64,000 nucleotides of DNA from an uncultured delta proteobacterium (GCA_963841435.1 CAWJCS010000002.1:320001-384000), one strand, 5' to 3'; positions 2,101-47,890 are shown, numbered from the stretch's first letter. The notes: a model not told the origin generated them from the sequence alone. Numbers and translations are program-made.

Positions 2101-3391
2101 ATGCCGAAACTGGTCCGCTTCAGCGCTTATTTCGCGTTCCATGCTCGTGCTCGCACACTGCGGGTTGACGGCCCCTTCCGATGACGACGACTCGAGTGGG
2201 GCAACGAGCGGGGGGAGCGCGGGCGCGTCGGCGACCGGCGGCAGCTCGGCGACCGGCGGCGTGAGCGCAACCGGTGGCGCGGGTGGCGCGGGCGGCACGG
2301 GCGGTGCGACGGGCGGGTCAGGTGGCAACGTGGGTGGAACCGGCGGCGTGACGGGTGGAACCGGTGGCACATCGGGTGGCGCCGGGGGCGTCGGCGGTAC
2401 CGCTGGCGTCACGGGCGGCGTCGGCGGGACCACGGGCGGCGCTGCGGGCGTCGGGGGCGCTCAGGGCGGCTTCGGCGGCACGGCCGGATCGGGGGGCTCC
2501 ATCGTTACCGGCGGTATGGGCGGCACGGCCGGGTCGTCGGGCGGCGCGGGCGGTGCGGGTACGGCCGGTATGGGGCCGATCGTCAACATGAACGGTGTGC
2601 CGCTCGCGAAGCCGGGCGATCAGAAGACGGGCTCGCGCGAGTACCTGAATCTCGGCGACATGCGCCTGCTCAACAACAAGTGGGGCTCGGACGAGCTCGG
2701 CTGCAACACGACGATGCGCGTCTTCGCCAACACCGACAAATCGCTCGGCTGGGACTTCAACCGCGGCACCTGCGGCGGGGCGAACGCCAAGCCCGACTAC
2801 CCGGAGATCGAGTTCGGCGTGCATCCGTTCGGTGCCGGCAACAGCCTCGCGACCTCGCCGGACTTCTCGTTAACGCTGCTCTTGCCCAAGCAGATGAAGG
2901 ACATCACGTCGGCGAGCGTGACCATCGACAACCTCGTGATCAATCTCCAGGGCCAGCAGTCCTGGAACCTCAACTTCGAGTTCTGGCTGAGCCAGGGGAA
3001 CCCGCTCGAGGCGAATCCCGGCGTGCACGCCGAGCTCATCACGTTCTGGGGGTGGCAGGATGGCCGCTGGCCCTGCGACAAGACCGGTAACGTGAACGCC
3101 GGCGACAAGGGCTACCACCTCTGCCACCAGGACGACAATTGGGCGAGCGGCCAGTGGCGCTACTTCCAGTTCTGGGTCGACAACGGCCCGAACCGGAGCT
3201 TCTCCGGCAAGGTCAACGTGAAGGCCCTCATGGAGTGGCTCGTGAACAACTACGGCTACTCGAGGGACCTCTGGGTTACCCGCTTCGAGGTCGGCACGGA
3301 GATCGACGACAACACGAGCGGCACCGCCACGATCAAGAACATCACGTTCGAGGTGAACGGCACCTCGAAGTCTCCGCAGTTCGCGCAGTGA
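2101..3391 (+). CDS. GH12 endoglucanase-like enzyme with Gly-rich N-terminal linker; start region probably frameshifted
   Basis: NNKWG, YPEIEFGVHPF, NLNFEFW, AELITFW (nucleophile E) and FEVGTEI (acid/base E). GGAG precedes ATG 2101, but that ATG is out of frame with the main ORF; the in-frame alternative is ATG 2141. Confidence 0.75.
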
Positions 3392-3442
3392 GCCCATCGG
3401 ACACGGGGAGCGCCCGCGACGCGGCGCCCGGGCTCGGCGCGG

Positions 3443-5197
3443 TCACGGTGTGACGCGGAGCGTGGCCCAGCCGTGGGCGGGCACGTCGAACTGGTACAGC
3501 GTGCTGCCGAGCCCTACGGTCGTCGTCTTCGCTGCGTCACCCTTGTTGTAGACCTCGGTGACGATGCTGCCGTCGGGGTTCAGGAAGGCGAGGGCGTCGT
3601 TGCTGCCGCTCGTCTTGATGCGCGTCGCGCCCGGGAACACGTACTGCGAGAAATGCCGGAAGGCGTAGTACGCGGGAGTCACGATCAGCTTCTTCGCTGA
3701 ACGATCCACCGTCAAAAGCGAGTTCTGGGGCCAGTTGTCGAGGCTCTTACCCACGGTGTCGAGCACCATGTTCCAAGCGCTGTACGAGCTCACCCCTGCG
3801 ACAATCCAATCCCGGATGAGCTGCCAGGTCTCCTCACCATAGAGATGATCGTTCTGCGGCTTGTTGGGGTCGTACCGGCTCTGATCCCAGTAGGGCGTCG
3901 AGAAGTTGTAGTTCCCGCACTTGTGCTCCGTCTGCCAGACGGGGGCCTTCGCTGCCAACGTGGCGACCGCGGCTTGCAGGTTCCACTGCACGCCGAAGCC
4001 CTTCACGTAGGCCATGGCTGCAGCGTCGCTGGCGACCGCCTTGGCGATGTTGGTGTCGTCCGGGTCCTTCGACATGGTCCCGCACCAGATCTCGGCCGTG
4101 AGCCCCCGCTCGGCAAACGTCGGCCCCAGGTAGGTCTTCAGGAAGTCGATGAAGAGCGCTTGCGTCCAATGCACCCGCGCATAGCCGGGCTCGTTTTGCG
4201 GGTGAATCGCGACGATCGGGAGACCCTCCTTGGCGTACTCTTCCACGAACCTGGCCATGTACAGGGCATGGGCGCCAAGCGTCTGCGCATCGCTCTTCAT
4301 GTTCGAGCCGCTCATCATCCAGGACGGAACGACCCACGGGCTCGCCCAGAGCTTGATGTCGGGCCTGATCTGTTGGGCCGCCTTGATGAAGGGGATTAGC
4401 TTTTCACGGTCGCGATCGATCGAGAAGTCGTTCATCGCGAAGTCGCCCGCCGTTTCGTCGAGCGTGTACCAGCTCATCGAGTAGTCGCTCGCGCCCATCG
4501 GGAGCCGCCCGTAGACGAAATTGGCGCCGTCGGCCGCGTCGAAGAGGAGCGTCAGCGCCTTCGTCACGTCGGCGGAGCTCAATACCGAGAGGGCATCCCA
4601 ACCCATCTCGTTGAAGCACCCACCGAAACCGGTGAGCACTTGGTACTTGGTGCTCTGGTCGACGGTCACGTCGGCGGTGCCGCCCGCCATCTGCGTCACG
4701 GTGCCCTGCGTGTTGAAATAGTCATTGGGGCCGGACGTGACGAAGTCAGGCAGCGTGGGACCCGCGCCGGCCGCTCCGCCGCCTGCCATACCTGCGCCAC
4801 CGGTCGGTGCACCGCCGCTCATGCCGGCCTGGCCACCGAGTCCGCCGCTCGCGCCACCAGCAGCGCTGCCTGCCGCGCTTCCTGCCATGCCCGCGTCCGA
4901 TCCGCCGGCCGGGCTACCCGCCGCGCCGCCGGCCGGGCTCCCTCCGCCCGCGTTGCCGCTACTGCCGCCGACCGAGCCGCCGCTGCCGCCGCCGCCGCTG
5001 GTGCTGCCGCCGCTGGTGCTACCGCCGCTGCCCCCAAGCGAGCCGCCACTGCTGCCGCCGACGGAGCTGCCGCCCGTGGCGCTCGCTGAGCTCCCGCCGG
5101 ATCCAGCCTGCTCGGAGCTCGAAGATGGCTGCGAGCTGCAAGCAGCGACGCAGAGCGCGAGCGAGATGCCGGTGATCGCCAATGATGCTCTGTTCAT
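3443..5197 (-). CDS. GH30 glycoside hydrolase lipoprotein (glucosylceramidase/SrfJ-like branch) with Gly-rich linker
   Basis: Start MNRASLAITG...VAAC lipobox at ATG 5197; GFGGCFNEMGW, RLPMGASDY, WASPW, QNEP, QTEHKCG, WNMVLD. Confidence 0.9.
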   Translation of the reverse strand: MNRASLAITGISLALCVAACSSQPSSSSEQAGSGGSSASATGGSSVGGSSGGSLGGSGGSTSGGSTSGGGGSGGSVGGSSGNAGGGSPAGGAAGSPAGGSDAGMAGSAAGSAAGGASGGLGGQAGMSGGAPTGGAGMAGGGAAGAGPTLPDFVTSGPNDYFNTQGTVTQMAGGTADVTVDQSTKYQVLTGFGGCFNEMGWDALSVLSSADVTKALTLLFDAADGANFVYGRLPMGASDYSMSWYTLDETAGDFAMNDFSIDRDREKLIPFIKAAQQIRPDIKLWASPWVVPSWMMSGSNMKSDAQTLGAHALYMARFVEEYAKEGLPIVAIHPQNEPGYARVHWTQALFIDFLKTYLGPTFAERGLTAEIWCGTMSKDPDDTNIAKAVASDAAAMAYVKGFGVQWNLQAAVATLAAKAPVWQTEHKCGNYNFSTPYWDQSRYDPNKPQNDHLYGEETWQLIRDWIVAGVSSYSAWNMVLDTVGKSLDNWPQNSLLTVDRSAKKLIVTPAYYAFRHFSQYVFPGATRIKTSGSNDALAFLNPDGSIVTEVYNKGDAAKTTTVGLGSTLYQFDVPAHGWATLRVTP

Positions 5198-5704: not shown

Positions 5705-6940
5705 GTGCCCCCGCGAGATTCTTCATTCGTAGCGCTCAGGCACCGAAACTTCCGTCTGCTCTGGCTCGGCCTGTTCGTGTCGATGGCCGGATCGCTGATG
5801 CGGAACGCCGCGATTCTCTGGCACGTTTCGCTGCTCGCGCCGGCGGGGCACAAGGCGCTCGCGCTCGGCGGTGTCGGGCTCGTGCGGGCGGTCGCCATCT
5901 TCGTCTGCTCGCTCGTCGCGGGGGTGGCGGCGGACGCGTTCGACCGACGGCGGCTCTTGCTCGTGACGAACGTCACGCTGCTCGTGATCTCGAGCTTGCT
6001 CGCCACCGTCACGCTCACGGGCACCGACGGGCTCGGCATCCTCTACGTGCTGACGTCGCTCAGCGCCGCGGCGAGCACATTCGACAATCCCGCCCGCAAT
6101 TCGTTCTTTCCTTCGCTCGTGCCGCGCGAGCAACTGCCCAATGCGATTAGCCTAAATAGCATCCTGTTCCAGACCGCCTCGGTGGTTGGTCCCGTGATTG
6201 CCGGCGTCGTCATCGCGAAGACGAACGTCGGCTGGGTCTACGTCGTCGATGTGCTGAGCTTCGTCGTGCTCATCGTGCTCCTCGTGGCGATGCGCGACCT
6301 GCCGCCGCAACGGACCACGGGTCGCGCGGGGCTCACGGTCGGCGCGGCGTGGGAGGGCGTCCGGTTCGTGTTCGGGCGTCCGCTGATTCGGTCGTCGATG
6401 CTGCTCGATTTCTTCGCGACGTTCTTCGCCTCGGCGACGGCGCTATTGCCGATATTCGCGCAGGACGTGCTGCGCGTCGGCGCACACGGCTACGGCGTGC
6501 TGTCGTCGGCGACGGCGGCCGGCGCGGTCGTCACGAGCCTGTTCATGGCGAGGTTCATCGAGCGCATCGAGCGCCGCGGCCTCACGCTCGTCGTCGCGGC
6601 CGTCATCTACGGCCTCGTCACGATTGGCTTCGGACTGTCGCGACTGTTTTGGCTGAGCTTCGCGTGCCTGGTCCTCTCCGGCGCGGCGGACATGGTCAGC
6701 ACGGTGCTGCGCAACGTGATTCGCCAACTCGCGACGCCCGACGAGATGCGGGGCCGCATGACGAGCGTGAACATGATCTTCTTCATGGGTGGCCCGCAGA
6801 TCGGCGAGCTCGAGGCAGGTCTCGTCGCACAGGCGATCGGCCCGCTCGGGTCGGTCGTTTCGGGCGGCATCGGTTGCGTGCTCGCCGTGCTCTTCATCGC
6901 CTGGCGCACACCGGAGCTCGTGCGCTACGGCAGGGAGTGA
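5705..6940 (+). CDS. MFS transporter (EntS/DHA3-like)
   Basis: About 12 hydrophobic segments; LRHRNFRLLW, GVAADAFDRRRLL, TPDEMRGR and GGPQIGELEAG. Confidence 0.9.
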   Translation: MPPRDSSFVALRHRNFRLLWLGLFVSMAGSLMRNAAILWHVSLLAPAGHKALALGGVGLVRAVAIFVCSLVAGVAADAFDRRRLLLVTNVTLLVISSLLATVTLTGTDGLGILYVLTSLSAAASTFDNPARNSFFPSLVPREQLPNAISLNSILFQTASVVGPVIAGVVIAKTNVGWVYVVDVLSFVVLIVLLVAMRDLPPQRTTGRAGLTVGAAWEGVRFVFGRPLIRSSMLLDFFATFFASATALLPIFAQDVLRVGAHGYGVLSSATAAGAVVTSLFMARFIERIERRGLTLVVAAVIYGLVTIGFGLSRLFWLSFACLVLSGAADMVSTVLRNVIRQLATPDEMRGRMTSVNMIFFMGGPQIGELEAGLVAQAIGPLGSVVSGGIGCVLAVLFIAWRTPELVRYGRE

Positions 6941-6971: not shown

Positions 6972-8384
6972 TCAGTAGGGGCGGCCGGGGATGTCGAGCG
7001 GGAGCTCGAAGAGCCCCTTGTTGGTGCCGAGCCCCGTAATGTAGAGCGTCTTCCGGTCCACTCCGCCGAACGCCACGTTCGTGACCTCCTGGACGTCAGG
7101 CACGGTGATGGTGCCCACCTGGGCTCCCTGAGGCGTGTAGACATCGACGTTCGGAGACTTCGATTTGGCCACGTACAGATTGCCGGCGCAGTCGATGACC
7201 ATGCCGTCGCCCCCCGACGCTTGCGTGAAGTTAGCCCCTGCCGTGATGGTTCCGTCGGGCATCACCGGATAGCGCCGCCCGACTTCTGCCGCGACGTAGA
7301 GGTAGTCCTCGGCGAGCGAGAGCGTCACGCCGTTTGGATTGGTGAACATGTCCGGGCTCGCGCCCGATGGGATCGGCTCGGCCGTGTTGCCAGCCGGGGC
7401 CACCCGGTAGACCAAGGTCCGGGCCTGTGGCGGCGGGCTGGGGGACTGGAAGCTGGGATCGGAAAAGTAGAGAGTGCCGTTCGAGTGCAATGCGAGATCG
7501 TTCGGCGAGTCGAAGCGCACGTTCATGTAGGTGCCGACGAGCGTCGTCGCGGCGCCGCCGGGCAGCGTGAAACGCTTGACCGACCCGTCCTTGTGCACGC
7601 ACCCTAAGAGGTTGCCGCTCGGCTCGAGCGCGAGGCCGTTGGTCCCCGAATCCGCAAGCACGATCGTCACCTGACCGCCCGGCACGAACTTGAGGAGCCG
7701 GGCCATCTTGACCTCGCTGCCGAGTTGCGGATACGGCGTGTCGGTCATTTCGGTCATGTAGAGCGCGTCGCCGGTCCACACGGGGCCCTCGATGTTCCCG
7801 AAGCTCGCGTTGTTCATGTTGAACGAGTCGTGCGGTGGCACCGCCGTGATGCGCGTCGGCGTTCCGCCGAGCGTCGGCGTCCCGGTCATTCCCGAAGGGC
7901 AGGCCCAGACACCCCCGCCGGCGCCTGCTGCTCCCGCTCCGCCGGAAAACCCGCCGGCGCCCGCTGCGTCGCCACCCGCTCCGCCGTTCGCACCCGCCAT
8001 GCCGCCGTCGCCGGCACCCGCCGATCCTCCCGCGAGTGCACCCGCCGATCCTCCCGCGCCCGCGCCTGCGCCGGACGCACCGCCCGCGCCGCCGCCGGCA
8101 AGACCAGCCGTGCCGGCGAGCGCGCCGGCTGCGCCGCCGGTGCCCGCCTGAGCCGCGACGCCACCCGCACCGCCGACCGCGCCGCCGCTACCAGCTCCGG
8201 CCCCCAGTCCCGCAACGCCGCCAGCTCCGCCGGTTTCGCCCGTCGTGCCGCCGGCACCGCCGGAGCCGTTTTTTCCTCCGCTTCCGGGTGACGGGTTCGT
8301 GCCGCAGCCTGGCGTGCCCAGCGTGAAGCACAACAGGGAGCTTGCGATCGTGGGAGTCCAGAAGAGACGCGTCGCTAGCCGCAT
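6972..8384 (-). CDS. SMP-30/gluconolactonase-family beta-propeller lipoprotein with Gly-rich linker
   Basis: TPGC lipobox; EGPVW, TNGLA, FDSPNDL, YFSDP, NPNGVTLS, DGMVIDCAGNLYV, TNVAFGG, TLYIT. Confidence 0.9.
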   Translation of the reverse strand: MRLATRLFWTPTIASSLLCFTLGTPGCGTNPSPGSGGKNGSGGAGGTTGETGGAGGVAGLGAGAGSGGAVGGAGGVAAQAGTGGAAGALAGTAGLAGGGAGGASGAGAGAGGSAGALAGGSAGAGDGGMAGANGGAGGDAAGAGGFSGGAGAAGAGGGVWACPSGMTGTPTLGGTPTRITAVPPHDSFNMNNASFGNIEGPVWTGDALYMTEMTDTPYPQLGSEVKMARLLKFVPGGQVTIVLADSGTNGLALEPSGNLLGCVHKDGSVKRFTLPGGAATTLVGTYMNVRFDSPNDLALHSNGTLYFSDPSFQSPSPPPQARTLVYRVAPAGNTAEPIPSGASPDMFTNPNGVTLSLAEDYLYVAAEVGRRYPVMPDGTITAGANFTQASGGDGMVIDCAGNLYVAKSKSPNVDVYTPQGAQVGTITVPDVQEVTNVAFGGVDRKTLYITGLGTNKGLFELPLDIPGRPY

Positions 8385-8808: not shown

Positions 8809-10773
8809 ATGCCCCCCCGACTTTTCTTCCTTCCCTCGTTCATTCGTGCGCTGAGCATCCCGGCGGGTGCTCTGGTCGCCTTGGCTCTGACTCCTGCCTG
8901 CGACAGCGCGCAGTCCGATTCCGACGACGGCGGCTCCGCGCCCGTGAGTGGCGCGGGTGGCGCTGGCGCGGGAGCGAGCGGTGGCGCCGGCGGGACTTCC
9001 GGTACCGGTGCTGGAACCGGTGCCAGCTCGGGAACGGGAGGCGCCAATCCGAGCGGCGGCTCCGGCGCCGGCGCCCCACCGACTGGTGGGAGCGCGGGCA
9101 TTGGTACGGGCGGCGTGGGCGGTGTCGGTTCGGGCGGAACGGCCGGCGATGCGGGCTCTTCGAGCGGCGGCGTACCGCCGATGGCCATGTGCCTGGGGAG
9201 CTTCGAGAGCGTTGCCGTGAACGGCATGCAGAACACCGTGACGGTCGACAGCCAGACTATGAAGGGCGACCTGCCGCACTTCTGGGACACGTTCGGCACG
9301 GGGCACCTCGGCCTGTTCTTGCGTGACGACCGCGGCTGGGGGCAGACCCTGAAAGATCACGTCGTGGACGGCGTCAAGAACCTCGGCTTGCGGAGCCTCC
9401 GGGAGCACGGGCTTTTCCACGACGACATCGGCATCTATCACGAAGAGAACGGCAACCCCGTCTACGACTTCACGAAGTCGGATCAGATCTTCGACTTCTT
9501 GGTGGAGCAGGGTGTGGAGCCCATCGTCGAGCTCGCTCCGATGCCGCACGACCTCGCGGCGGATCCGAACAGGACCGTGTTCGACTGGAACATGATCGTC
9601 TCGCCGCCCAAGGACTTCGCGCGTTGGCAGGAGCTCGTCTACCAGTTCGTGCAACACAGCATCGACCGCTACGGCGTGGACGTGGTCGATAGCTGGTATT
9701 TCGAGGTCTGGAACGAGCCCGAGTGTTGCCAGGGCAAGTTCTGGTCCGGAACCATCGATCAGTACTTCGAACTCTACGATCACACGGCGGCCGGTGTGCG
9801 GCGCGCGCTGCCGGCGGGTCGCGTCGGCGGTCCCGTCAACAGCCAGCCCGTCGAGCTGACGGCGAACTCGATGCTCGGCCAGCGCTTCCTCGACCACGTC
9901 ACCACGACCAACTACATCACCCCCGGCCAGCCCGGCATCCTCGACTTCTTCTCGTACCACAGCTGGAGCTTCATCGACGGCTCGGTGAACGGCTACTTCC
10001 AGGGGCTCGATCTGCTCGACAGCTACGACAAGCAGAACGTCAGCATCGCGATCACGGAGTTTGGCCCCACCTACGAGTTCGGCCTCACCGACGAGCCGCA
10101 GGAGATGGACCAGGGCGCGGCCTTCGCCGTGCAGACCTATTCGGACATCGTTCAGCGTTGCACGAAGGACAACCGGCGCCTGCCCATCGCCTACTCGTGG
10201 TGGATCCTTTCGGACATCTTCGAGGAGGGGATGTATCGCGAGAATGACCCATTCATCGGCTGCATGGGTCTCACGAGCCGCGAGAACATCCACAAGCCGG
10301 TCTACAACGCGTACAAGTTCCTCGCGCAGCTCGGCACCCAGCAGGTCGCGTTCACCCTCAGCGGCGCCGCGGGCATCGGCGGGATGGCCGCGCGTAGCGC
10401 CGATGGCGGCGTCCAGCTCATCATCTACAACGGGCAGAGCCCGGGCCGAGGCCCCACCGACGACAGGTATTACACCGTGGCCGACGCGCAGTCGTTCGGC
10501 GTCACGGTATCGGGCCTCGATCCGGCGTTCCCGTACGACGTCACCGCGTACCGAGTCGATCACACCGTTGGCAACGCCTACGCCGCCTGGCAGGGCCTCG
10601 GCCGCCCCAACATGACCGCGATGACCGACGCGAACTGGCAAGCCCTGCGCGACGCGATGGATTCCCCCGCGGAGCCCGTCGCGCGCTCGCTGTGTGGAAC
10701 GACGTTCACGTATTCGTCCCAGCTTCAGTCACCTGGCGTGCTGTTCGTCAAGCTCGCGCCCGCAGCGCCCTGA
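8809..10773 (+). CDS. GH39 beta-xylosidase-like lipoprotein with Gly-rich linker
   Basis: GAGGAG RBS before ATG 8809; TPAC lipobox; HGLFHDD, PIVELAPMP, WYFEVWNEP, ITEF, WILSDIFEE, KPVYNAY. Confidence 0.92.
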   Translation: MPPRLFFLPSFIRALSIPAGALVALALTPACDSAQSDSDDGGSAPVSGAGGAGAGASGGAGGTSGTGAGTGASSGTGGANPSGGSGAGAPPTGGSAGIGTGGVGGVGSGGTAGDAGSSSGGVPPMAMCLGSFESVAVNGMQNTVTVDSQTMKGDLPHFWDTFGTGHLGLFLRDDRGWGQTLKDHVVDGVKNLGLRSLREHGLFHDDIGIYHEENGNPVYDFTKSDQIFDFLVEQGVEPIVELAPMPHDLAADPNRTVFDWNMIVSPPKDFARWQELVYQFVQHSIDRYGVDVVDSWYFEVWNEPECCQGKFWSGTIDQYFELYDHTAAGVRRALPAGRVGGPVNSQPVELTANSMLGQRFLDHVTTTNYITPGQPGILDFFSYHSWSFIDGSVNGYFQGLDLLDSYDKQNVSIAITEFGPTYEFGLTDEPQEMDQGAAFAVQTYSDIVQRCTKDNRRLPIAYSWWILSDIFEEGMYRENDPFIGCMGLTSRENIHKPVYNAYKFLAQLGTQQVAFTLSGAAGIGGMAARSADGGVQLIIYNGQSPGRGPTDDRYYTVADAQSFGVTVSGLDPAFPYDVTAYRVDHTVGNAYAAWQGLGRPNMTAMTDANWQALRDAMDSPAEPVARSLCGTTFTYSSQLQSPGVLFVKLAPAAP

Positions 10774-10923: not shown

Positions 10924-10928
10924 GAACG

Positions 10929-31952: not shown

Positions 31953-31958
31953 ATCGGT

Positions 31959-34242: not shown

Positions 34243-35210
34243 TGCGAAACCGGCCATATACGCTGGTTCTCTTGCTCGCGTGCACCCTGGCCCTGCCCGC
34301 CGTGCTCGACGACAGTCAGCTTTCGATCTACGTGCTCTGCGCGCTGACGGCGATCGTGACCATCGGTGTCTCCCTACTGATGGGGCAGGCGGGGCAGGTT
34401 TCACTCGGGCAGGGGGCGTTTTACGCTGCGGGGGCGTACACGGCGGGGGTGCTCGCCACTCACGACTGTCCGACGCTCCTCGCCCTGGCGGTCGCACCCG
34501 TGGCGGCCGCCATCCTCGCGGCTTTGGTCGGCGTGCCCCTGCTCATGCTCCGCGGGCATCATCTGGCGTTCGGCACCTTGGCGACGCACCTCATCTGTTT
34601 GTCGGTTGTCGGCGAAATGTCGGTTACGGGCGGTGACGTGGGGCTTCAAGGAATTCCTCGGCTCGGCGTCGGCCCCGTCGCCTTCGATTCCGTCCGGAGC
34701 TATGCCTATCTGAGCGCATTCGGTCTTCTTGGCGTCGCGCTCGTCGCGCGCAACATCCTGGCATCGCGTCCGGGGCGCGCGCTCAGAGCGCTCTCGAGCA
34801 GCGAGTTGGCCGCGGCGTCGTCCGGGATCCCCGTCGGCCCCTACAAGCTGGCCGTTTTTGCGCTCTCGGCCGCTTTCGCGGGCCTCGCCGGAGGCATCTA
34901 CGCTTTTTATATGGGCTATCTCGCCCCGGGCTCTTTTCCGGTTCTCTTGTCCGTGGAGTACGTCGTGATGGCGACGATCGGCGGGCTCGGGACGATTGAG
35001 GGCGGCGTCGTCGGCAGCGTGGTCGTGCTCTTGCTGGTTCACGGGCTCAGCAGGTTGGCGACGACGAGCGGCATGCCGGACACCGCGCCGGTGATCCTTT
35101 CTTACGCCGTGTACGCACTGCTCCTGATCATGGCGGTGTTGTTCCTGCCGGGCGGTGTCGTGTCGATTCCCGCTGCCTTGCGGCGACGGTTCACGGCACC
35201 CAAGACGTGA
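34239..35210 (+). CDS. livM: ABC permease, LivM-like
   Basis: ATGA overlap at 34239; GQAGQVSLGQGAF, SRPGRALRAL, YKLAVFALSA, IGGLGT. Confidence 0.92.
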   Translation: MMRNRPYTLVLLLACTLALPAVLDDSQLSIYVLCALTAIVTIGVSLLMGQAGQVSLGQGAFYAAGAYTAGVLATHDCPTLLALAVAPVAAAILAALVGVPLLMLRGHHLAFGTLATHLICLSVVGEMSVTGGDVGLQGIPRLGVGPVAFDSVRSYAYLSAFGLLGVALVARNILASRPGRALRALSSSELAAASSGIPVGPYKLAVFALSAAFAGLAGGIYAFYMGYLAPGSFPVLLSVEYVVMATIGGLGTIEGGVVGSVVVLLLVHGLSRLATTSGMPDTAPVILSYAVYALLLIMAVLFLPGGVVSIPAALRRRFTAPKT

Positions 35211-38153: not shown

Positions 38154-38170
38154 TATCAGGTTACCTGATA
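38154..38170. promoter_or_regulatory. Palindromic operator TATCAGG-TTA-CCTGATA upstream of the SGNH esterase
   Basis: Perfect 7+7 inverted repeat with the same core as 40380-40396. Confidence 0.8.
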
Positions 38171-38961: not shown

Positions 38962-39868
38962 CTAGAGCTCGAGCTTGGGGAGCCGAATGCCGGACGGCTG
39001 AAGGTGCTGAGCGAAGCGCGCCTGCCAAACCGCTGCGATTGCAGCCGGATCCCACCCGCCGCCACGGAGCTCGGTCACGAGCTCTGCCGGGTGCGAGTAC
39101 AGACACAGCCGGTCGCCACCGATCCCGATCGCCTGCCCCGTGATCCCGGCGGACGCGTTCGATGCGAGGAACACCACGAGGCCGGCGCAGTCTTCCGGCA
39201 TGCCGATGGCGTGCTCACGCCGCACGGCGGCCGGCAGGGGCTCGCCCGCTGCGACGCGCGGCACGAGCGGCTTGTACAGGGGGATGGTCGCGGTCATCGC
39301 CGTCCACGCGGTCGGCACGATGGCATTCACGGTGATTTCCGCGCGCGCGAGCTCGAGCGCCCAGGTGCGCGCGAACGCAACGATGCCGGCCTTCGCGGCC
39401 GCGTAGCTCGTCTGGCCGAAGTTCCCGAACTGGCCCGCCGGGGAGCCCACGACGATGATGCGACCGCCCTCGGCCTGCTCGCGCATCCGGATGGCCGCTG
39501 CTCGCGCGCACAGAAATGTTCCGCGCAGGTGCGTGCGCACGACCAGATCGAAATCTTCGTCGGTCATCTTCCACAGCACGGCGTCGCGCAGCACGCCGGC
39601 GTTGGTGACGACGGCGTCGAGAACGTCCGAACGAGTCGACGGCGCACGCGATCAGCGCGTCCGCCGCCGCGCGATCCCCGACGTCTCCGCCCACGGCGAC
39701 GGAGCGCTCGCCGGCGAGCGCTCGGGTCTCCTCCGCGGCACCCGAATTTAGGTCGTTGACGACCACGGAGGCTCCGGCCCGCGCGAGCGCGACCGCGTAC
39801 GCGCGCCCGAGGCCCTGGCCCGCACCCGTGACGACCACTACCTTGCCCTCGAGATCGCTCGGGCTCAC
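38962..39868 (-). CDS. SDR, 3-hydroxyacyl-CoA dehydrogenase-like; +1 frameshift at about 39622
   Basis: GTG 39868 overlaps the upstream stop; TGAGQGLG, VVVND. Removing one base restores FGR-LDAVVTNAGVLRD, then GNFGQTSYAAAKAG and TVNAIVP. Confidence 0.88.
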
Positions 39869-40359
39869 CGGTAGTACCTGAGCAAACACTCGGCGACGAG
39901 CGCAGGCTTGGGAAGGTCCCTGACCTCGATCGTGAACACCAAAGCGACCTGCACGCCCCCAGCGATTTGGGTCGCGTCGAGGACCTCACCATGGCCGCGG
40001 AAGTCAGCGCCGACCGGCAACGCTGCGGGAAAGCGGACCTTGTTCAGGCCGTAGTTGATCGAGGTCGCTGCGTCCTCGACCACGACGAGCTCTTGCGAAA
40101 TGGGCCCGAGCATCGAGAGGGTCAAAAACCCGTGTGCAATGGTGCCGCGGAACGGCGTGTGGCGCGCGCGCTCGGGGTCGACGTGGATGAAGTTGTGGTC
40201 GTTGGTCAGGGCGGCGAATTCGTTGACGCGATCCTGCGTCATCCGCTGCCATTCCGTGGGCCCGAGCTTCCGCCCGCTGTGGCGCGGCAGCTCAGCGATC
40301 GTGGTGACCAAGGGGCCGATTGTCGTGCTCGAAGGGCTTTCCGCCGTGTTGGTACGCAT
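39865..40359 (-). CDS. MaoC/NodN-like (R)-enoyl-CoA hydratase
   Basis: AAGGAGG RBS before ATG 40359; FAALTNDHNFIHVDPE, TIAHGFLTLS, NYGLNKVRFP. Confidence 0.92.
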   Translation of the reverse strand: MRTNTAESPSSTTIGPLVTTIAELPRHSGRKLGPTEWQRMTQDRVNEFAALTNDHNFIHVDPERARHTPFRGTIAHGFLTLSMLGPISQELVVVEDAATSINYGLNKVRFPAALPVGADFRGHGEVLDATQIAGGVQVALVFTIEVRDLPKPALVAECLLRYYR

Positions 40360-40500: not shown

Positions 40501-41037
40501 TTAGGCGGCGCGCCGTGACTGGGCGCGTTTGGGCGCGGGCGTCCGGGCTTCCTGGCCGGCCGCGGGCTGGGCGGCGTCGTGAAAGCCACCGCCGAGGTTG
40601 CGAACGGCGGACTTGATCATCGCCAGGAACTTCGACCGTTCGGGCCGACTGAACCCCCGCAACATCCGCGTCTCGAAGTCGGCGACGGCGGACTCGCAGG
40701 CGGCGACCACGCGCCGCCCCTTGGCCGTCAGGCTCGCGGGTCGCTTGCGGCGATGGTTGGGGTGCGCGTTGCGTTTGATCAGTCCGGCCCGCTCCAGGCG
40801 GTGGATGACCTCGTGCATCGACTGCGCCGTCATGAACGAACGCCGCGCCAGTTGCGAGCTGGACAAGGGCGCGCCATGGCGATTGAGGACACTCAACGTC
40901 GTGAACTGAAGTGCCGTCAGGTCGTGCCGCGCGGCGATTTCGCTGACCGAGCCGAGCACGAGCTGCTCTAGCCGGGCAATGGCGTAGGAGATCCCGGGCT
41001 CCGGGCTCGGGGGTGCCTTACCGTCGACCTTGTCCAT
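40501..41037 (-). CDS. MarR-family transcriptional regulator (start may extend to 41097)
   Basis: LTALQFTTLSVL, LSSSQLARRSFMTAQSM, LERAGLIKR, LTAKG. Confidence 0.92.
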   Translation of the reverse strand: MDKVDGKAPPSPEPGISYAIARLEQLVLGSVSEIAARHDLTALQFTTLSVLNRHGAPLSSSQLARRSFMTAQSMHEVIHRLERAGLIKRNAHPNHRRKRPASLTAKGRRVVAACESAVADFETRMLRGFSRPERSKFLAMIKSAVRNLGGGFHDAAQPAAGQEARTPAPKRAQSRRAA

Positions 41038-41902: not shown

Positions 41903-43165
41903 ATGGGAAGCGCGAGCGCTCGCCGCTCGCGTGGTCTCCTTCGAGCGCCGCTCGCGGCGGCGTCTGCGTGCGCGCTGCTCGCGTGCGCGACCGGTTGCGG
42001 TGACACCGGGCAACCGGCCGGCGCGGCGGGCAGCTCGGGGAATGTCACGGGCGGAGCGGGCAGTGGTGGCAGTTCGGGTGGAGGATCCGGCGGGAACATG
42101 GTGGGTGGCTCGGCTGGAACCGCGGGAGGCTCGGCGGGCACCTCCGCCGGCAGTGGTGGCGCGTCGGCGGGCGCGGGCGGCGCGGCGGGCATCGCGGGCT
42201 CGGGCGGCGGCGGCATGGCGGGCACGTCGGCCGAAAGTGGAGGCACCGGCAACGCGAGTGGTGCGGGCGGCGCCGCGATGGGAGGTGCTGCGGGCGCGTC
42301 GGGATCGGGCGGTGGAGCGAGCGGGGACGGTGGCAAGGCCGGCGGCGGTCCGAGCGGGGGCGGAGGCGCTGCCGGTTCGGGTGGCGCTACGCAGAGCAGC
42401 GGCTGCGGCAAGGCGCCGCCCGGCAGCGACCGCTACAGCATGGACGTGGACGGCACGATGCGCGAGTACATCCTCTCCGTTCCGGACGGCTACGACCAGA
42501 GCAAGCCGTACCGGCTCATCTTCACTTGGCATCCACTCGGTGGCTCGGCCCAGCAGGTCGCCGGATCCGGCAACAACGGCTACTACGGGCTCAAGAGCGC
42601 CTCCAACGGAGAAGCAATCCTGGTCTCGCCGGAAGGTCTGCCCTTCCAAGGCAGCAACCTCGGCTGGGCCAACACCAACGGTCGCGACATCGCCTTCTTG
42701 AGCGCCATGATCGAAAAGTTCAAAGCGGAGATGTGCATCGACGAGAGCAGGATTTTCTCCACGGGATTCAGCTTCGGCGGCATGATGTCGAACGCCGTCG
42801 GTTGCGCCGGGCTGGCCCGAGCGATCGCTCCCATGGCGGGCAACTCGCAGGTGAGCGGCTGCCAGGCGGGCACCCAGCCCGTCGCAATGATGGGCTTCCA
42901 CGGGGATCACGACTCCGTGGTCAACATCTCCGGAGGGCGGGCGGCGCGCGACGTCTTCGTGGGACGCAACCACTGCACCGACGCGACGATGCCCGCCGAT
43001 CCGGGCTGGTGCGATGGGGTCGCTCAGAACTTCCAGCCGTGCAACTGCGTGAGCTACCAGGGCTGCGACGCGGGTTACCCCGTGGTCTGGTGCGAGTACA
43101 ACGGGGATCACATGGCAGCGCCGAGCTCGGGCACCACGATCTGGAACTTCTTCGCCCAGTTCTGA
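41903..43165 (+). CDS. CE1-like esterase lipoprotein (candidate feruloyl esterase) with Gly-rich linker; start may be 41849
   Basis: Lipobox LLAC or ATGC; REYILSVPDGYD, YRLIFTWH, GWANTNGRDIAF, CIDESRIFSTGFSFGG, HGDHD, GDH, IWNFFAQF. Confidence 0.87.
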   Translation: MGSASARRSRGLLRAPLAAASACALLACATGCGDTGQPAGAAGSSGNVTGGAGSGGSSGGGSGGNMVGGSAGTAGGSAGTSAGSGGASAGAGGAAGIAGSGGGGMAGTSAESGGTGNASGAGGAAMGGAAGASGSGGGASGDGGKAGGGPSGGGGAAGSGGATQSSGCGKAPPGSDRYSMDVDGTMREYILSVPDGYDQSKPYRLIFTWHPLGGSAQQVAGSGNNGYYGLKSASNGEAILVSPEGLPFQGSNLGWANTNGRDIAFLSAMIEKFKAEMCIDESRIFSTGFSFGGMMSNAVGCAGLARAIAPMAGNSQVSGCQAGTQPVAMMGFHGDHDSVVNISGGRAARDVFVGRNHCTDATMPADPGWCDGVAQNFQPCNCVSYQGCDAGYPVVWCEYNGDHMAAPSSGTTIWNFFAQF

Positions 43166-43502: not shown

Positions 43503-44696
43503 ATGGTCATGGTGCGCCCGGCCCCCTTTTTTGCTCGCATGTTGGCCGTTGCTCTGTCGATGGCGACCGCAGCGTGTCTGACGCCATCGCCCGCACCGTG
43601 CCCGCCCACGGCTCCATCCGCCACGTTCACACCCGCTGCCCCGCCTCAAGCCGTCGAAGCGAGCGTCCCGCTCGAGTCGATGACGGAGCTCGACGCGTGG
43701 GACGCGGTTTTGCGGATGAGCCCGGGCATCAACATCGGCAATACCCTCGAGAACACCACGCACTGGGAAACCGGCTGGGGCAATCCAGTCATCACCGAAG
43801 AGTACGTCCGGAGCCTCGGGGCGCTCGGCTTCAAGACCGTCCGCCTCCCCGTGGCGTGGAATACGTACGCAGTCGACGGTCGTATCCAACCCGAAAAGCT
43901 CGCGCGTGTTCGTGAGGTCGTCGATTGGATCACGAACGCCGGCATGTTTTGCGTCCTCAACGTTCACTGGGACGGCGGCTGGATCGATTCGAGCCAGAAG
44001 GGAAAATACCAAAAGCTCCACGTCTTCAGCAGCGAGGCCGAAGAAAAATATCGCTCCTACTGGAGCCAGATCTCGAGCTACTTCGCTGGCAAGAACGAGA
44101 AGCTGATCTTCGAAGCGCTGAACGAGGAGACCAACTTCGAAAACGAAGGCTCTCTCGACAAAGCCTACGCGACGCTCACGCGCGTGAACCAGCTCTTCAT
44201 CGATACCGTGCGCAAGACCGGCGGCAACAACGCGAAGCGACTGTTGATTGTCACCGGTTACACCACGGACATCACGAAGACCTCGAGCCCCCTCTACCTT
44301 CTCCCGAAGGACACCATCGCGCACCGACTTTTCATCTCCGTCCACTACTACACCCCGTGGCCGTTCGTCGGAATGACCGAGGACGCGAGCTGGGGGAAGA
44401 TGGCGCCGACGTGGGGAAGCCCGAGCGACAGAGAGGAGCTCAATCGTCTCTTCGACATGATGGGCGAGTTCTGCTCCAAGCACGACATTCCGGCGTTCAT
44501 CGGAGAGTTCAGCGCCACCGAAAAGAAAGAGTCTGCTTCGCGCGTTCGCTGGCTCTCCGCCGTCATGGACGCCGCGCGAGCCAGGAAGATGGTCCCGGTA
44601 CTCTGGGATACCGGCAGTGCGGTTGCTCGGCTGCCGCCCCATGTTCCCAGTGCCGATCTGCAAGAGGTGCTGCAGCACCTCGCGGCACCGCAATGA
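43503..44696 (+). CDS. GH5 (GH5_4-like) endoglucanase/xyloglucanase lipoprotein with Pro-rich linker
   Basis: GINIGNTLE, ETGWGNP, VRLPVAW, LNVHWD, IFEALNE (acid/base), VHYYTP, IGEF (nucleophile), LWD. Confidence 0.92.
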   Translation: MVMVRPAPFFARMLAVALSMATAACLTPSPAPCPPTAPSATFTPAAPPQAVEASVPLESMTELDAWDAVLRMSPGINIGNTLENTTHWETGWGNPVITEEYVRSLGALGFKTVRLPVAWNTYAVDGRIQPEKLARVREVVDWITNAGMFCVLNVHWDGGWIDSSQKGKYQKLHVFSSEAEEKYRSYWSQISSYFAGKNEKLIFEALNEETNFENEGSLDKAYATLTRVNQLFIDTVRKTGGNNAKRLLIVTGYTTDITKTSSPLYLLPKDTIAHRLFISVHYYTPWPFVGMTEDASWGKMAPTWGSPSDREELNRLFDMMGEFCSKHDIPAFIGEFSATEKKESASRVRWLSAVMDAARARKMVPVLWDTGSAVARLPPHVPSADLQEVLQHLAAPQ

Positions 44697-45853
44697 TCGC
44701 GCCACGCGTGCTCGTCTTGCTCGGGACGGAGGCCGCCTGGTCGCGCGGCGTCCTCCGCGGCTTCATGACGATCGCCCACGAGCGGGACTGGACGTTGCTT
44801 CACTACGACCCGGGCTCGGACTTGAAGTGGGTGGCCCGCGAGTGGGCCCCGACCGCCGTGGTGTTCGGCCCGGAGCTCGAGCCGGCGGCACTGGCCCGGC
44901 TCTCCCCCGCGGCGCTGATTTCGGTGACGGTCGATCGCAGCGAAAGTGGCATCGCCTCCGTGTGCCTCGACGAGGAAGGCATCGCGGCACTCGCGCTCGA
45001 GCATCTGATCACGCGGGGGTTCCGACGCGTGAGCACCTTCCGCTACGACGAGTCACCTTTCGCCGTGGCGCGAGAGCACGCGTTCGTCGAGCGCGCGCGG
45101 GCGGCGGGTCTGGACGTCACGGCGGGTTGGGGCAACGGCGACTACACGAGGTCCGAGCGGCAGGAACGCCCTGCCGCCATGGTGGCATGGTTGCGCTCGC
45201 TGCCGAAGCCCTGCGGTGTGTTCACCTCCACGGACGGATGGGCGCGCGCCGTGGCGCGCTACGCGCGCGAAGCCGGACTGCGAGTTCCGGAAGACGTCGC
45301 GCTCGTCGGTGCCGACAACAACGTCCTCGGATGCGAGCTGCTTTCGCCGCCGCTCTCGAGCGTGATCATTCCGTGGAACGATGTCGGCCGGCAGGCGGCG
45401 ACGCTCGTCCGCCTCGCTCTCTCCAAGCAGCCGATCGCGGGGAGACGCGTCGTCGTTTCTCCGCTGACCGTCGCGGCGCGACGCTCCTCGGACGTGCTGG
45501 CGGTCAACGATGTGCTCGTCGCTCGCGCCGTCACCTGGATCCGTGAGCACGCGGACCGGCGCCTCACCGTAACGATGGTGGCTCGCGCCGTGGGTGGCGG
45601 CCGGCAGCGCCTCGAGCGGCGCTTTCGGCGCTCGCTCGATCGCACGATTCAACAAGAGATCCGGCGGGCGCACGTCGAAAGAGCGAGGCACTTGCTTGCC
45701 ACGACGCGTTCCAGCATGGCCGAGGTCGCAAGACGAAGCGGCTTCACCAGTGCTTCACTGCTCAACGTGGCGTTCCAGCGCGAGCTCGGCATGCCGCCTG
45801 GAACGTACCGTCGTCGGCTGCAGAGGCAGCAGGATGATCGTGACGACGACTGA
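44693..45853 (+). CDS. xylR: XylR-type regulator (periplasmic-binding-protein-like domain plus AraC HTH)
   Basis: WLRSLPKPCGVF, RVPEDVALVGADN, PPLSSV, RRSSD, LERRFR, EVARRSGF, GMPPGTYR; ATGA overlap with the GH5 gene. Confidence 0.88.
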   Translation: MIAPRVLVLLGTEAAWSRGVLRGFMTIAHERDWTLLHYDPGSDLKWVAREWAPTAVVFGPELEPAALARLSPAALISVTVDRSESGIASVCLDEEGIAALALEHLITRGFRRVSTFRYDESPFAVAREHAFVERARAAGLDVTAGWGNGDYTRSERQERPAAMVAWLRSLPKPCGVFTSTDGWARAVARYAREAGLRVPEDVALVGADNNVLGCELLSPPLSSVIIPWNDVGRQAATLVRLALSKQPIAGRRVVVSPLTVAARRSSDVLAVNDVLVARAVTWIREHADRRLTVTMVARAVGGGRQRLERRFRRSLDRTIQQEIRRAHVERARHLLATTRSSMAEVARRSGFTSASLLNVAFQRELGMPPGTYRRRLQRQQDDRDDD

Positions 45854-45890: not shown

Positions 45891-46982
45891 TCACGGGCTC
45901 TGAGTTAGAAGCCCGAGGCGCCAAGGAATGCGATTGTAGTCGCCGCCCGTGTCGGCCGTGGGATCGTCGCCCTGAAAGAGGTAGCGCATGTTGCAGGGCT
46001 CGATCTCGAGCGTCTGGTCGTAGCCTGAGCGGAGCATCTCGCCGTGGCTGATGTCCTCTGTCCACGGCGCTCCCTCGAACGTGACGTTTCGCTCTCCGGC
46101 GAAAGGAAACGAGCCGCTGCCCTGCCACGGCAGCCACGGTCCCTCGAGGTCGTCCGCGATCCACGAGCGATAGTAGCGGTGGTTGTTCGAAGTCTGGTCA
46201 AAGGCCTCGATCAGCGCGAGATACTGAGTCCTGCCCTTGATTTTGTAGACATTCGAACCCTCGAAGAGTCGGCCGTGATTCGTGTCTCGAAGGACGACGA
46301 CCGGCTCCTCGAAGCCCATCGGAAAGGTATCGATGCGCGTCTTGCTCTTGTAGTAGAGGCCCTCGTTGCTCGAGAAGAACAGGTGACACCACGCCGAGTC
46401 ACAGATCACCCAATAGTCGAGCCACCCGCCGCCGTTCTCGGTGATGATCGCGGGCGTCGCCGAGAAGAAAGGTGCCGGGGGCGACCACCCCGTCGGATCG
46501 CCGGGGTCGTCCGCCGTCGAGTACATCGGCGGGCCCGACTGAAAGACGAGATACCACTTGTTTTGGGGCCTGAAGTAAAAGAGCTCCGGAGCGGCGACGT
46601 AGGTGTCGAAGCCGGGCGTCTGATCCATGTAGGAAAACGACGCACTCGACGGGTCCGACCAGTCCGTGAAGCTCGTGTAGACCAGGTTGTACGTCCCCGT
46701 GGTCGAGACGGAGCTCGCGTACACGTGCCAGCGGTCGTTGAAGTACACCGGCGACGGATCCTTCACTGCCAGGAGGTCGTGCGCGGCGTCCGAGATCGGC
46801 GCGATCAACGGCCCGGTTCCCGTCCACCGGACGCTGGGCGCAAGCTCACAGGTCCCGTCGCCCCCGTTGTCCGGAGCACTTTCCGTCTCGGACGACGAAC
46901 AGGCGAAGAGTGGAAGCCCGCTGCAAGCTAGATAGGCGATTTCGAGCGCGCCAAGTCGAATCTTTCGAGCTCGCGTGGTCAT
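45891..46982 (-). CDS. GH62 alpha-L-arabinofuranosidase lipoprotein
   Basis: GGAG before ATG 46982; LFAC lipobox; VKDP, APELFYF, WLDYWVICD, LFEGSNVY, DISHGE, RYLFQG, PWRLGLLT. Confidence 0.93.
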   Translation of the reverse strand: MTTRARKIRLGALEIAYLACSGLPLFACSSSETESAPDNGGDGTCELAPSVRWTGTGPLIAPISDAAHDLLAVKDPSPVYFNDRWHVYASSVSTTGTYNLVYTSFTDWSDPSSASFSYMDQTPGFDTYVAAPELFYFRPQNKWYLVFQSGPPMYSTADDPGDPTGWSPPAPFFSATPAIITENGGGWLDYWVICDSAWCHLFFSSNEGLYYKSKTRIDTFPMGFEEPVVVLRDTNHGRLFEGSNVYKIKGRTQYLALIEAFDQTSNNHRYYRSWIADDLEGPWLPWQGSGSFPFAGERNVTFEGAPWTEDISHGEMLRSGYDQTLEIEPCNMRYLFQGDDPTADTGGDYNRIPWRLGLLTQSP

Positions 46983-47005
46983 GGTGGGTCTCCGTAGACG
47001 GCGCG

Positions 47006-47890
47006 TCAGTAAAATCGCAAGTTGTTGACGGCGATCGTGTAGGCGCCGGGCTCGAGCATGTAGTCGGGTGGCGGATAGCTCATGAAGGGTTGAATCACCA
47101 GGCGCACGATGTTCTGCCCGGTCACTGGCACGCAGGAGGCCTCGCTTCCAATGCCGGGTGTGAGGACGCTCCACGGCAGTTGAAATCGCGTCCATGTGGT
47201 GGCGTCCGGCGGGAGCGCCAGTTCCACGGCGGCGTCCTTGCAGTCGCTCGCCGTCGGGTTGTCACAGAGTCCACGGTCAGCGGTCGGGATCGTGTCGAGC
47301 ATGCCGAGACTCACGCCGAACCTGCCGGATGGAGAGGCACCCCTGATCGAGAGCTCCAACCCCTGATATTCCCGAGCGTCCACGCAAGCGGGCGTCGAGC
47401 CGTTGTCCGGGAAATAGAACGAGAGCAGTCCACCCCAATTCATCGCATTGGTGTTTGCGATCTGCAGAGCGTAGCCGCTGTCGCCCTCGCCGGTCACCAT
47501 CGCGGTCGTGATGACTCCCGTCCCGCCGTTCATGTCGGAGCCGTCGCCGACGTGCAAAAAGGCGCCGAGCACCGCATCGTCCGCCGGCGGAACCGCGTTG
47601 AGATAGAAGGTGTAGCTCGCCGGTGCCCCACCTGCGTAGTCGTCGAAGTCGGCGATCGTCGGCATGCTCACGCGGCTGCACTGAGCAGTTTCGGCAGGCA
47701 ATGGAGCCGCGACGCCGCACTGGTTGAAGTTCTCCCCGCCGATGCCTGGCGCTCCGGTGCCGCCCGTGCCGCCCGTCGAGTCCGGGCCGCCGCCCGACGG
47801 TTCGGCGCCGTCGCCACCACATGCCGCGAGGGTGTGGAGGGTCAAGACCAGGGTGGTGAGGGTAAGAAAGCGGGGGAACGGACGTTGCAT
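47006..47890 (-). CDS. Lipoprotein with a CBM11/CIA30-like beta-sandwich domain
   Basis: LAAC lipobox and short Gly linker; IADFD, WGG, DAREYQGLELSIRG, WTRFQLPWS, NNLRFY; stop lies 23 bp before the GH62 start. Confidence 0.65.
   Translation of the reverse strand: MQRPFPRFLTLTTLVLTLHTLAACGGDGAEPSGGGPDSTGGTGGTGAPGIGGENFNQCGVAAPLPAETAQCSRVSMPTIADFDDYAGGAPASYTFYLNAVPPADDAVLGAFLHVGDGSDMNGGTGVITTAMVTGEGDSGYALQIANTNAMNWGGLLSFYFPDNGSTPACVDAREYQGLELSIRGASPSGRFGVSLGMLDTIPTADRGLCDNPTASDCKDAAVELALPPDATTWTRFQLPWSVLTPGIGSEASCVPVTGQNIVRLVIQPFMSYPPPDYMLEPGAYTIAVNNLRFY

Follow-up and report, generated by a model that had tools for sequence, protein, structure and literature searches.

Organization of the aromatic block and its esterase gene

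We analyzed a window of 64,000 nucleotides from the genome of an uncultured delta proteobacterium (GCA_963841435.1 CAWJCS010000002.1:320001-384000), which corresponds to C2:320001-384000 in a genome of 7.78 Mb (6 contigs, 95% complete). The window carries a 15-kb aromatic block composed of boxR, a thiolase gene, fcs, HAAT-family ATP-binding cassette (ABC) transporter genes, a porin gene, an SGNH esterase gene, maoC1, a short-chain dehydrogenase/reductase (SDR) gene, maoC2, and marR. It is probable that the region is an esterase-coupled phenolic-acid regulon inside a variable tract of carbohydrate-active enzyme (CAZyme) genes, and that the block, likely for p-coumarate, is co-regulated with the SGNH gene and one off-locus gene of carbohydrate esterase family 1 (CE1). 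The glycoside hydrolases (GHs) encoded nearby may be neighbors under other regulators that serve the same diet. A first-pass annotation had tied esterase lipoproteins to the aromatic block, and this tie was borne out by the SGNH gene, which lies in a conserved marR-maoC-SDR-SGNH-porin cassette and has the same operator-like palindrome upstream as maoC2, and by the resemblance of CE1b to a feruloyl esterase of known structure.

Genes in the window were called with a custom codon model, and families were assigned by Pfam, NCBIfam, and PDB matches of the window proteins. Metagenome-assembled genomes of Polyangiaceae served as congeners for comparison, the contig of G005 being record L052. The features of the block are as follows.

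26237..27220, minus strand: BoxR/BzdR-family regulator, helix-turn-helix (HTH) plus shikimate-kinase-like domain (PRK08154, 319 bits, cut-off 204)
27277..28533, minus strand: thiolase, beside fcs in 9/9 congeners
28570..30453, minus strand: Fcs-type acyl-CoA synthetase (PRK12582, 779 bits, cut-off 777)
30489..30504: first BoxR-type palindrome, toward fcs, with the highest score genome-wide (25.7)
30622..30637: second BoxR-type palindrome, toward the ABC genes, with the second-highest score genome-wide (23.3)
30729..35210, plus strand: HAAT-family ABC transporter (binding lipoprotein, two ATPases, two permeases), in 9/9 congener blocks
35285..36727, minus strand: Porin_4 outer-membrane porin, 68-70% in G005 and L054, in the same order
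36934..38082, minus strand: putative SGNH esterase lipoprotein with Gly linker and GES, GGGND, and DGIHP motifs
38154..38170: MarR-type palindrome immediately before the SGNH gene, kept in G005 and L054
38408..38878, minus strand: MaoC1, hotdog-fold hydratase-like
38962..39889, minus strand: SDR dehydrogenase, frameshifted
39865..40359, minus strand: MaoC2, hydratase-like, 70% in L054
40380..40396: MarR-type palindrome before maoC2, used for training
40501..41037, minus strand: MarR regulator, 81% in L054 and 35% to the MarR beside fcs in Pusillimonas

Operator-like palindromes

Two palindromes were derived by comparison of upstream regions. Each of the 12 Polyangiaceae loci compared has one to three copies of the first ahead of its fcs. 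When a matrix was trained on the other 11 loci, the two best sites in the present genome fell in the region that separates fcs from the ABC genes, and no CAZyme gene was preceded by a site. The pattern occurred in 9 of the 11 fcs-positive genomes and in 1 of the 36 fcs-negative genomes (control, 3/47). We infer that the first palindrome belongs to BoxR.

The second palindrome was taken from the maoC2 leaders of the present genome and L054. Two perfect copies of this MarR-type palindrome exist in 7.78 Mb, before maoC2 (the training site) and before the SGNH gene. The genome encodes 528 Gly-linker proteins, 468 of them with a domain of at least 100 amino acid residues and 365 with a lipobox. Among the 468 genes, a site with two or fewer mismatches was found only before the SGNH gene (0 mismatches) and before the off-locus CE1 gene C2_527337 (1 mismatch). 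The site also precedes the SGNH gene in G005 and L054 and a 79%-identical CE1 gene in G005, and the genome of L054 contains only two MarR-type sites, before maoC2 and the SGNH gene. Single one-mismatch MarR sites in G050, G014, G013, and G060 (4/45 other genomes; reversed control, 1/47) and single BoxR-like matches in G048 and G002:C311 were set aside as chance matches.

In G043 and G049, which lack the MarR, a BoxR-type palindrome stands before an SGNH gene of a second clade (approximately 42%). G044, also without the MarR, has a BoxR-type palindrome before a second-clade SGNH gene, across an assembly break in the linker repeat. Neither palindrome was found before any of 10 SGNH homologues located away from the block edge. 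MarR and BoxR are predicted to bind at their respective palindromes. A promoter and terminator scan gave results at chance level.

The genome of Pusillimonas caeni (G064) also contains only two MarR-type sites. One lies between marR (35% MarR) and fcs, and the other, a perfect palindrome, directly precedes a tannase/feruloyl-esterase lipoprotein gene (L252:1501-3015).

Predicted pathway and substrate

In the proposed mechanism, the lipid-anchored SGNH and CE1 proteins would cut hydroxycinnamoyl esters of the plant wall at the envelope, and the acid would enter via the porin and then the HAAT ABC transporter. Fcs would form the coenzyme A (CoA) ester, MaoC would hydrate it, the SDR would oxidize the product, and the thiolase would yield 4-hydroxybenzoyl-CoA and acetyl-CoA, as expected from the protein families. 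4-Hydroxybenzoate would then pass through PobA to 4,5-cleavage by LigAB, whose genes are present on contig C5 and through which flux is presumed. MarR would derepress maoC-SDR and SGNH-porin as well as the distant CE1 gene when it senses cinnamoyl-CoA, and BoxR would do so for fcs-thiolase and the ABC operon in response to aroyl-CoA.

The combination of CoA ligase, hydratase, dehydrogenase, and thiolase that marks beta-oxidative hydroxycinnamate degradation is present in the block by family, and MaoC, SDR, and thiolase fit such a route. No crotonase-family hydratase/lyase, the mark of the Fcs/Ech type, lies beside fcs (the genome has five ECH_1 genes, all of them outside the window), and the fcs/ech route to vanillin was rejected. 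Fcs is a putative hydroxycinnamate ligase by its match to PRK12582, a family labeled "feruloyl-CoA synthetase", and no close solved structure was found. The BoxR-like regulator has the HTH plus shikimate-kinase-like domain architecture of BoxR/BzdR. Control of box genes, marked by the diiron protein BoxB, does not apply, as no PaaA_PaaC-family gene was found in the present genome.

PobA, LigA, and LigK scored above the NCBIfam cut-offs. The route ends in PobA and LigAB in the present genome and G005, and the other genomes have a PaaA-like protein and gentisate genes. The region C5:129455-138243 (L037) contains a complete pobA-ligAB/C/I/J/K-type protocatechuate 4,5-cleavage cluster, and its G005 orthologue adjoins the ABC genes. 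At L136:15630-19879, genes for a PaaA-like diiron protein, an SDR, and gentisate dioxygenase are found, usually with a ferredoxin reductase and a 160-166-residue protein, and PaaA-like/gentisate genes were also seen in G002, G007, G016, G044, G049, G052, G053, L054, and L055. This set is a candidate for a 4-hydroxybenzoyl-CoA NIH-shift route in Myxococcota. A route from 4-hydroxybenzoyl-CoA to gentisate (phgABC, NIH shift; citing Zhao 2018) is described in the accessible part of PMC7862547. The congener blocks resemble phgABC by gene content (PaaA-like protein, gentisate dioxygenase, FAH, GST, and usually ferredoxin reductase), whereas the present genome lacks the PaaA-like/gentisate set.

No convincing vanillate O-demethylase (VanAB or LigM) was found in the genome: the VanA search gave one weak Rieske VanA_C match (47-48 bits) in an unrelated context, and the GCV_T family matched a probable GcvT and, apart from that, gave a single match that was weak and partial. 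Because both endings start from 4-hydroxybenzoate and no convincing vanillate demethylase is present, p-coumarate is our best guess for the substrate of the block. Judging from the gene content, p-coumarate or caffeate is more likely than ferulate, which would likely stop at vanillate, and ferulate as the sole substrate was rejected.

A broader scenario can be put forward tentatively: Polyangiaceae may have recruited lipid-anchored SGNHs as hydroxycinnamoyl esterases and wired them twice, through MarR-type and BoxR-type systems with new operators, to a beta-oxidative p-coumarate pathway ending in protocatechuate 4,5-cleavage or NIH-shift gentisate formation.

Conservation among relatives

An fcs orthologue was found in 11 of the 47 genomes of the genus (one of them, G046, unpublished), spread over at least four gyrB subclades, and its nearest relatives outside the genus are proteobacterial (54-57%). 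The flanks were examined in nine congeners carrying the block. The genes fcs, thiolase, boxR, and those of the ABC transporter were kept in 9/9, whereas the glycoside hydrolase set was not conserved. A linker lipoprotein of CAZyme, esterase, or lactonase type was located within 1 kb of the block edge in 7/9 congeners. The window hydrolases that recurred near congener blocks were GH30a (two genomes; 76% in G002 and 83% in G044), SGNH types (four), CE1b (one, at a second fcs), and a 43% GH5 (one). One CE1 type was found in 6/47 genomes, all fcs-positive, and was 0.5-17 kb from the block in four of them.

The order marR-maoC2-SDR-SGNH-porin is the same in L054, and SDR-SGNH-porin is retained in G005, whose contig ends at the SDR start. 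MaoC1 was not found in any congener locus fetched, MaoC2 was not found in five congeners, and the MarR of the block was found in none of 46 congener genomes. Most congeners have a FadB-like protein and other SDRs in place of MaoC and the SDR. At L053:5312-8151 and L055:1-2494, a TRAP-type transporter apparently replaces the ABC importer, judging by the translated sequences. In G007:C57:116402-119013 (L023), a second, shorter fcs (53%, without the C-terminal part) lies 72 bp downstream of a CE1b orthologue on the same strand, and the sister genome G046 has the same pair.

The patchy distribution of fcs and its proteobacterial relatives would also be expected if a horizontally gained aromatic block had landed by chance in an accessory lipoprotein-rich region, with the SGNH being an unrelated acetyl esterase. 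Islands with CE1, SGNH, and GH10 genes exist without fcs or the rest of the block (G048), a CE1 gene lies within 5 kb of 139 of 822 gene boundaries (17%) in linker-rich tracts, and the block of G053 has no such neighbors. However, two palindromes precede two SGNH clades exactly where the SGNH gene adjoins the block and are absent from the 10 other homologues, and the MarR site is conserved before the off-locus CE1 orthologue. We regard a chance neighborhood as very unlikely.

Esterases and the nature of the ester

CE1b gave a full-domain match to 8JH8, a feruloyl esterase solved with ferulic acid (E 8e-59), and contains the Ser-Asp-His motifs, so that both similarity and motifs are those of a CE1 feruloyl esterase. 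It is a predicted feruloyl esterase by this resemblance. The SGNH protein has intact motifs and a confident SGNH fold in the predicted structure (pLDDT 96); a PDB sequence search gave no real match. It is predicted to be a hydroxycinnamoyl esterase, and SGNH enzymes that act as cinnamoyl esterases are on record (PMC12774918). The SGNH family is abundant and unannotated (606 matches).

The same architecture could serve other esters and acids, such as p-coumaroylated lignin, suberin or cutin, chlorogenate, 4-hydroxyphenylpropionate, or 4-hydroxybenzoate esters, with no special tie to xylan. The esterase linked to the operator in Pusillimonas belongs to the tannase family and its context is unrelated to xylan, PETase/cutinase-like lipoproteins are frequent in the same tracts, and every downstream route begins at 4-hydroxybenzoate. 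In addition, SGNHh1060 and SGNHh2017 of Ruminiclostridium cellulolyticum release p-coumarate and ferulate from lignocellulose, p-coumarate mainly from lignin, according to the accessible part of a 2025 paper (PMC12774918). On the other hand, the neighbors in congeners are often of xylan type (GH10, GH30 xylanase, GH43, GH67, and CE15), and the CE1 types match the feruloyl esterase solved with ferulic acid. This alternative is possible, although we do not consider it likely.

Several observations weigh against an esterase-coupled p-coumarate regulon. Regarding the operators, CE1a and CE1b, the esterases nearest to the block, have neither palindrome upstream, nor does any glycoside hydrolase gene in the window; the BoxR palindrome holds a -10-like hexamer and may partly be a promoter element; and the link in G044 depends on joining two contig ends at a repeat. 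Regarding conservation, G052 (short contig) and G053 have no CAZyme neighbor (2/9 congeners), five of the six genomes with the recurrent CE1 type form one subclade, which makes that association weak, and the genomes are not independent because most of the esterase adjacency comes from one gyrB subclade. The block contains no thioesterase or ADP-forming ligase that we could find, and its SDR gene carries a frameshift in the present assembly. Finally, the SGNH protein may be a general acetyl esterase, since none of its solved relatives is close (at most 19% identity) and its family also occurs in fcs-negative genomes (77% in G048 and 73-77% in Sorangium).

The surrounding hydrolase genes

The features on both sides of the block are as follows.

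2101..3391, plus strand: GH12-like Gly-linker lipoprotein (PDB 3VL8, E 0.008; no Pfam match)
3443..5197, minus strand: GH30a lipoprotein, nearest to glucanase/glucosylceramidase-type GH30
5705..6940, plus strand: MFS transporter of EntS/DHA3 type, by family not a sugar importer
6972..8384, minus strand: SMP-30/gluconolactonase (SGL) lipoprotein (Pfam/NCBIfam)
8809..10773, plus strand: GH39 beta-xylosidase-like lipoprotein (4M29, E 3e-48)
10929..12722, plus strand: GH30b lipoprotein, same type as GH30a (5NGK, E 3e-36)
12932..14674, plus strand: GH30c, endo-beta-1,6-galactanase-like lipoprotein (24TD, E 9e-60)
15000..16772, plus strand: GH30d, GH30_8-like xylanase (E 3e-43 to GH30 xylanases)
16876..18729, plus strand: GH30e lipoprotein, same type as GH30a
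19038..20556, plus strand: GH8 Rex8A/xylanase-like lipoprotein, frameshifted (E 1e-48)
22460..23269, plus strand: LuxR-type regulator, near the block in G044 (73%) and G049 (60%)
23332..24588, minus strand: CE1a, PHB-depolymerase-like esterase lipoprotein
24779..26209, minus strand: HD-domain plus LuxR regulator
41903..43165, plus strand: CE1b, feruloyl-esterase-like lipoprotein (8JH8, E 8e-59)
43503..44696, plus strand: GH5 lipoprotein
44693..45853, plus strand: XylR-like regulator (PBP domain plus AraC HTH)
45891..46982, minus strand: GH62 arabinofuranosidase lipoprotein
47006..47890, minus strand: lipoprotein similar to carbohydrate-binding modules (CBMs) (ESM Atlas 0.91 to CBM30/galactose-binding clusters, a lead only)

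The first-pass annotation had listed about 15 lipoproteins around and among fcs, the thiolase gene, two maoC genes, the SDR gene, and the ABC, porin, boxR, and marR genes, and this inventory was confirmed with 15 lipobox hydrolase-like genes. A lipobox-like Cys, scored by a regular expression and hence as a pattern only, was present in 15/15 of them and in the ABC binding protein, and 12/15 contained at least 19 Gly in 40 residues, GH5 and GH62 having no linker. The hydrolases are accordingly predicted, from their sequences, to be lipid-anchored at the envelope. As the first-pass annotation had also noted, typical marks of other systems are absent: no TonB receptor is encoded on contig C2 (nine above the cut-off elsewhere in the genome), and neither SusD, and hence no susC/susD pair of the Bacteroidetes type, nor the cohesin and dockerin modules of cellulosomes were found in the 95% complete genome.

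GH39, GH8, GH62, GH30d, and CE1b fit xylan, whereas GH30a, GH30b, GH30c, and GH30e resemble non-xylanases, and the idea of a GH30_8 enzyme plus four more xylanases was rejected. In GH30d, the stretch aligned to WWYIRR reads WWYKAY and has no arginines, so that the conserved prokaryotic arginine of GH30_8 glucuronoxylanases is missing; we take one arginine of that stretch to be the GH30_8 specificity residue. Arg-less GH30_8 enzymes are a basis for possible non-specificity in the accessible part of PMC11058611, and GH30d is possibly a non-specific xylanase. GH30a, GH30b, and GH30e scored highest on an endo-1,6-glucanase model, far below its cut-off, and the names of their homologues are generic; they could still be GH30_2 xylosidases, an activity taken from the GH30 subfamily list in the part of PMC11058611 that is accessible. 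As GH30c is galactanase-like and GH30a/b/e are nearest to 1,6-glucanase, the hydrolase set appears from its families to be wider than arabinoxylan.

Is the whole tract one locus?

In the first-pass annotation, the entire 46 kb was taken for a single co-regulated locus whose enzymes would strip feruloylated arabinoxylan at the cell envelope, with the ferulate then being consumed; this was put forward as a third design next to polysaccharide utilization loci (PULs) and cellulosomes. Some observations agree with this. With 12 linker genes inside 25 kb, the block ranks among the top 1.8% of positions in the genome, and CE1 genes equally close on both sides occur at only 6 of 6105 gene boundaries. 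A linker lipoprotein adjoins the block in most congeners, as described above, the layout in G044 is similar and also two-sided, comprising GH10, GH30, GH5, GH27, and esterases, and the xylan-fitting enzymes named above are part of the tract. However, gene content varies between genomes, with GH30a the only GH recurring as a close orthologue near the block (2/9). No aromatic operator precedes any GH gene, and no motif shared by the upstream regions of GH genes was found beyond the common SGL/GH39 intergenic region. The locus has no sugar transporter, its transporters being only the EntS-like MFS protein and the HAAT ABC system. The non-xylanase-like character of four GH30s, equally dense tracts without fcs, and the lack of an evident vanillate demethylase also disagree with it. 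One integrated arabinoxylan locus is therefore unlikely, and a phenolic-acid regulon with its own esterases remains the preferred reading.

Tethered CAZymes are a general habit of this genome. The 50-kb bin C2:300-350 kb, which includes the first 30 kb of the window, contains 14 linker genes, and four other bins contain 12-15. For C6:100-140 kb, C6:700-760 kb, and C2:1105-1145 kb, equal density was judged by linker counts alone. The genome has 25 CE1-like genes and more than 10 GH30 genes. A third design is unsupported because Gly-linker lipoproteins (365 with a lipobox) are the general style of the genome, with equally dense tracts lacking fcs, and because a xylan locus with GH10, GH62, GH30, and CE1 is known in Cellvibrio (PMC4285296, accessible part). 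The window gives no grounds for claiming a new design of polysaccharide degradation.

The boundaries 2101..47890 proved arbitrary because more CAZyme lipoproteins are encoded upstream of the window, including GH39-CBM6, a split GH30, and GH10 at approximately 10 kb, the last labeled from congener orthologues. This split GH30, a sixth one of the a/b/e type, lies at C2:317114-318659 (window -2886 to -1341) and consists of two open reading frames (ORFs).

In C6:850000-881000 (L048, L049), the layout is repeated without fcs, with GH54, SGNH, HD-LuxR, and Porin_4 paralogues; HAAT ABC genes are followed directly by three CE1-like lipoprotein genes, a GH30 xylanase gene, and a further CE1 gene. Neither the MarR-type nor the BoxR-type palindrome was found in this tract.

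Comparison with known systems

The hca cluster of Acinetobacter baylyi ADP1 reportedly contains a chlorogenate esterase, a porin, a transporter, a CoA ligase, and MarR, and is said to use a crotonase lyase and a tannase-family esterase. Common to that cluster and the present block is a MarR regulator set over genes for a secreted esterase, a channel in the outer membrane, an importer, and a CoA ligase. The present block differs in the absence of a crotonase, the MaoC/SDR/thiolase route, the use of Gly-linker SGNH and CE1 lipoproteins and of an ABC importer, and the presence of an additional regulator of BoxR type. By this analogy with the hca cluster, the module may work in the same way but be built from other parts.

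CoA-dependent beta-oxidative hydroxycinnamate pathways are reportedly present in Agrobacterium fabrum, Rhodococcus (cou), and Corynebacterium (phd). The enzyme set is the same here, including PobA to protocatechuate. In the literature searched, such pathways are not described for Myxococcota. In contrast to those pathways, esterase lipoprotein genes here have the same operators as the pathway genes, and congeners swap in a FadB-like protein and the PaaA-like/gentisate ending. The sequence of ligase, hydratase, dehydrogenase, and thiolase to 4-hydroxybenzoate and then through PobA to protocatechuate is described in the accessible part of PMC13406360.

The Cellvibrio japonicus xylan locus comprises GH10, GH62, GH30, the CE1 enzymes Fee1A/B, and GH98, and SusD is unmentioned in the accessible part of the source (PMC4285296). 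Xylanases, arabinofuranosidase, and feruloyl esterases are likewise clustered there outside the Bacteroidetes, but aromatic catabolic genes are unreported there in that part, and its XyGUL has a TonB receptor. The R. cellulolyticum SGNHs, likened to the present protein by description only, differ in being cellulosomal and reportedly restricted to cellulolytic anaerobes, and the accessible part of PMC12774918 describes release rather than catabolism. No account of the esterase-plus-block arrangement in Myxococcota was found in the searchable literature, which most subscription papers lie outside. The words "lipoprotein" and "aromatic" are absent from the main text of a 2025 survey of myxobacterial CAZymes (PMC12093494).

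In the broader scenario outlined above, soil myxobacteria would take up the sugars as well as the phenolics of grass cell walls by harvesting both at the cell surface. If the esterase-coupled regulon is real, myxobacteria, which a review treats as degraders of polysaccharides (PMC12093494), would also consume cell-wall phenolics. The prediction also provides testable substrates for an abundant unannotated SGNH family and specific CE1 lipoproteins, and two candidate operators that could be employed in mapping regulons or in building p-coumarate biosensors.

Assembly quality and minor observations

The concern that the contig might be chimeric found no support and this explanation was rejected: GC content is even along the contig, and G044 has GH30a (83%), LuxR (73%), GH5, and CE1 beside the same block. 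GH8 is frameshifted near 20430 and the SDR gene near 39620, the G005 orthologue of the latter being intact (302 residues). In the GH12-like gene, the start codon at 2101 (ATG) and the lipobox ORF, which runs from 2141, are in different reading frames, a likely frameshift. Assembly error behind the GH8 and SDR frameshifts is plausible because 3 of 127 other testable loci in the genome are also frameshifted. Two public DNA runs over 26001-45000 gave short pieces only, and the SDR frameshift was not spanned.

The GH8 frameshift joins the GH8 frame to a separate lipoprotein-like ORF at approximately 20670-21449 (plus strand) of the window, which has no family assignment. Two genes, at 21500-22177 (plus strand) and 41210-41656 (minus strand), have no Pfam or NCBIfam family. 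Linker lipoproteins of the DUF1592/DUF1588 type (a cluster of 32) are paired with DUF1552 genes in esterase/CAZyme tracts, also in congeners; examples are L036:14664-17743, L037:6114-9358, and L041:9738-12643. At 49786-53184 (plus strand), the window encodes a large secreted protein with an M12B metallopeptidase domain, HYR, RTX-type calcium repeats, and a C-terminal CBM2.

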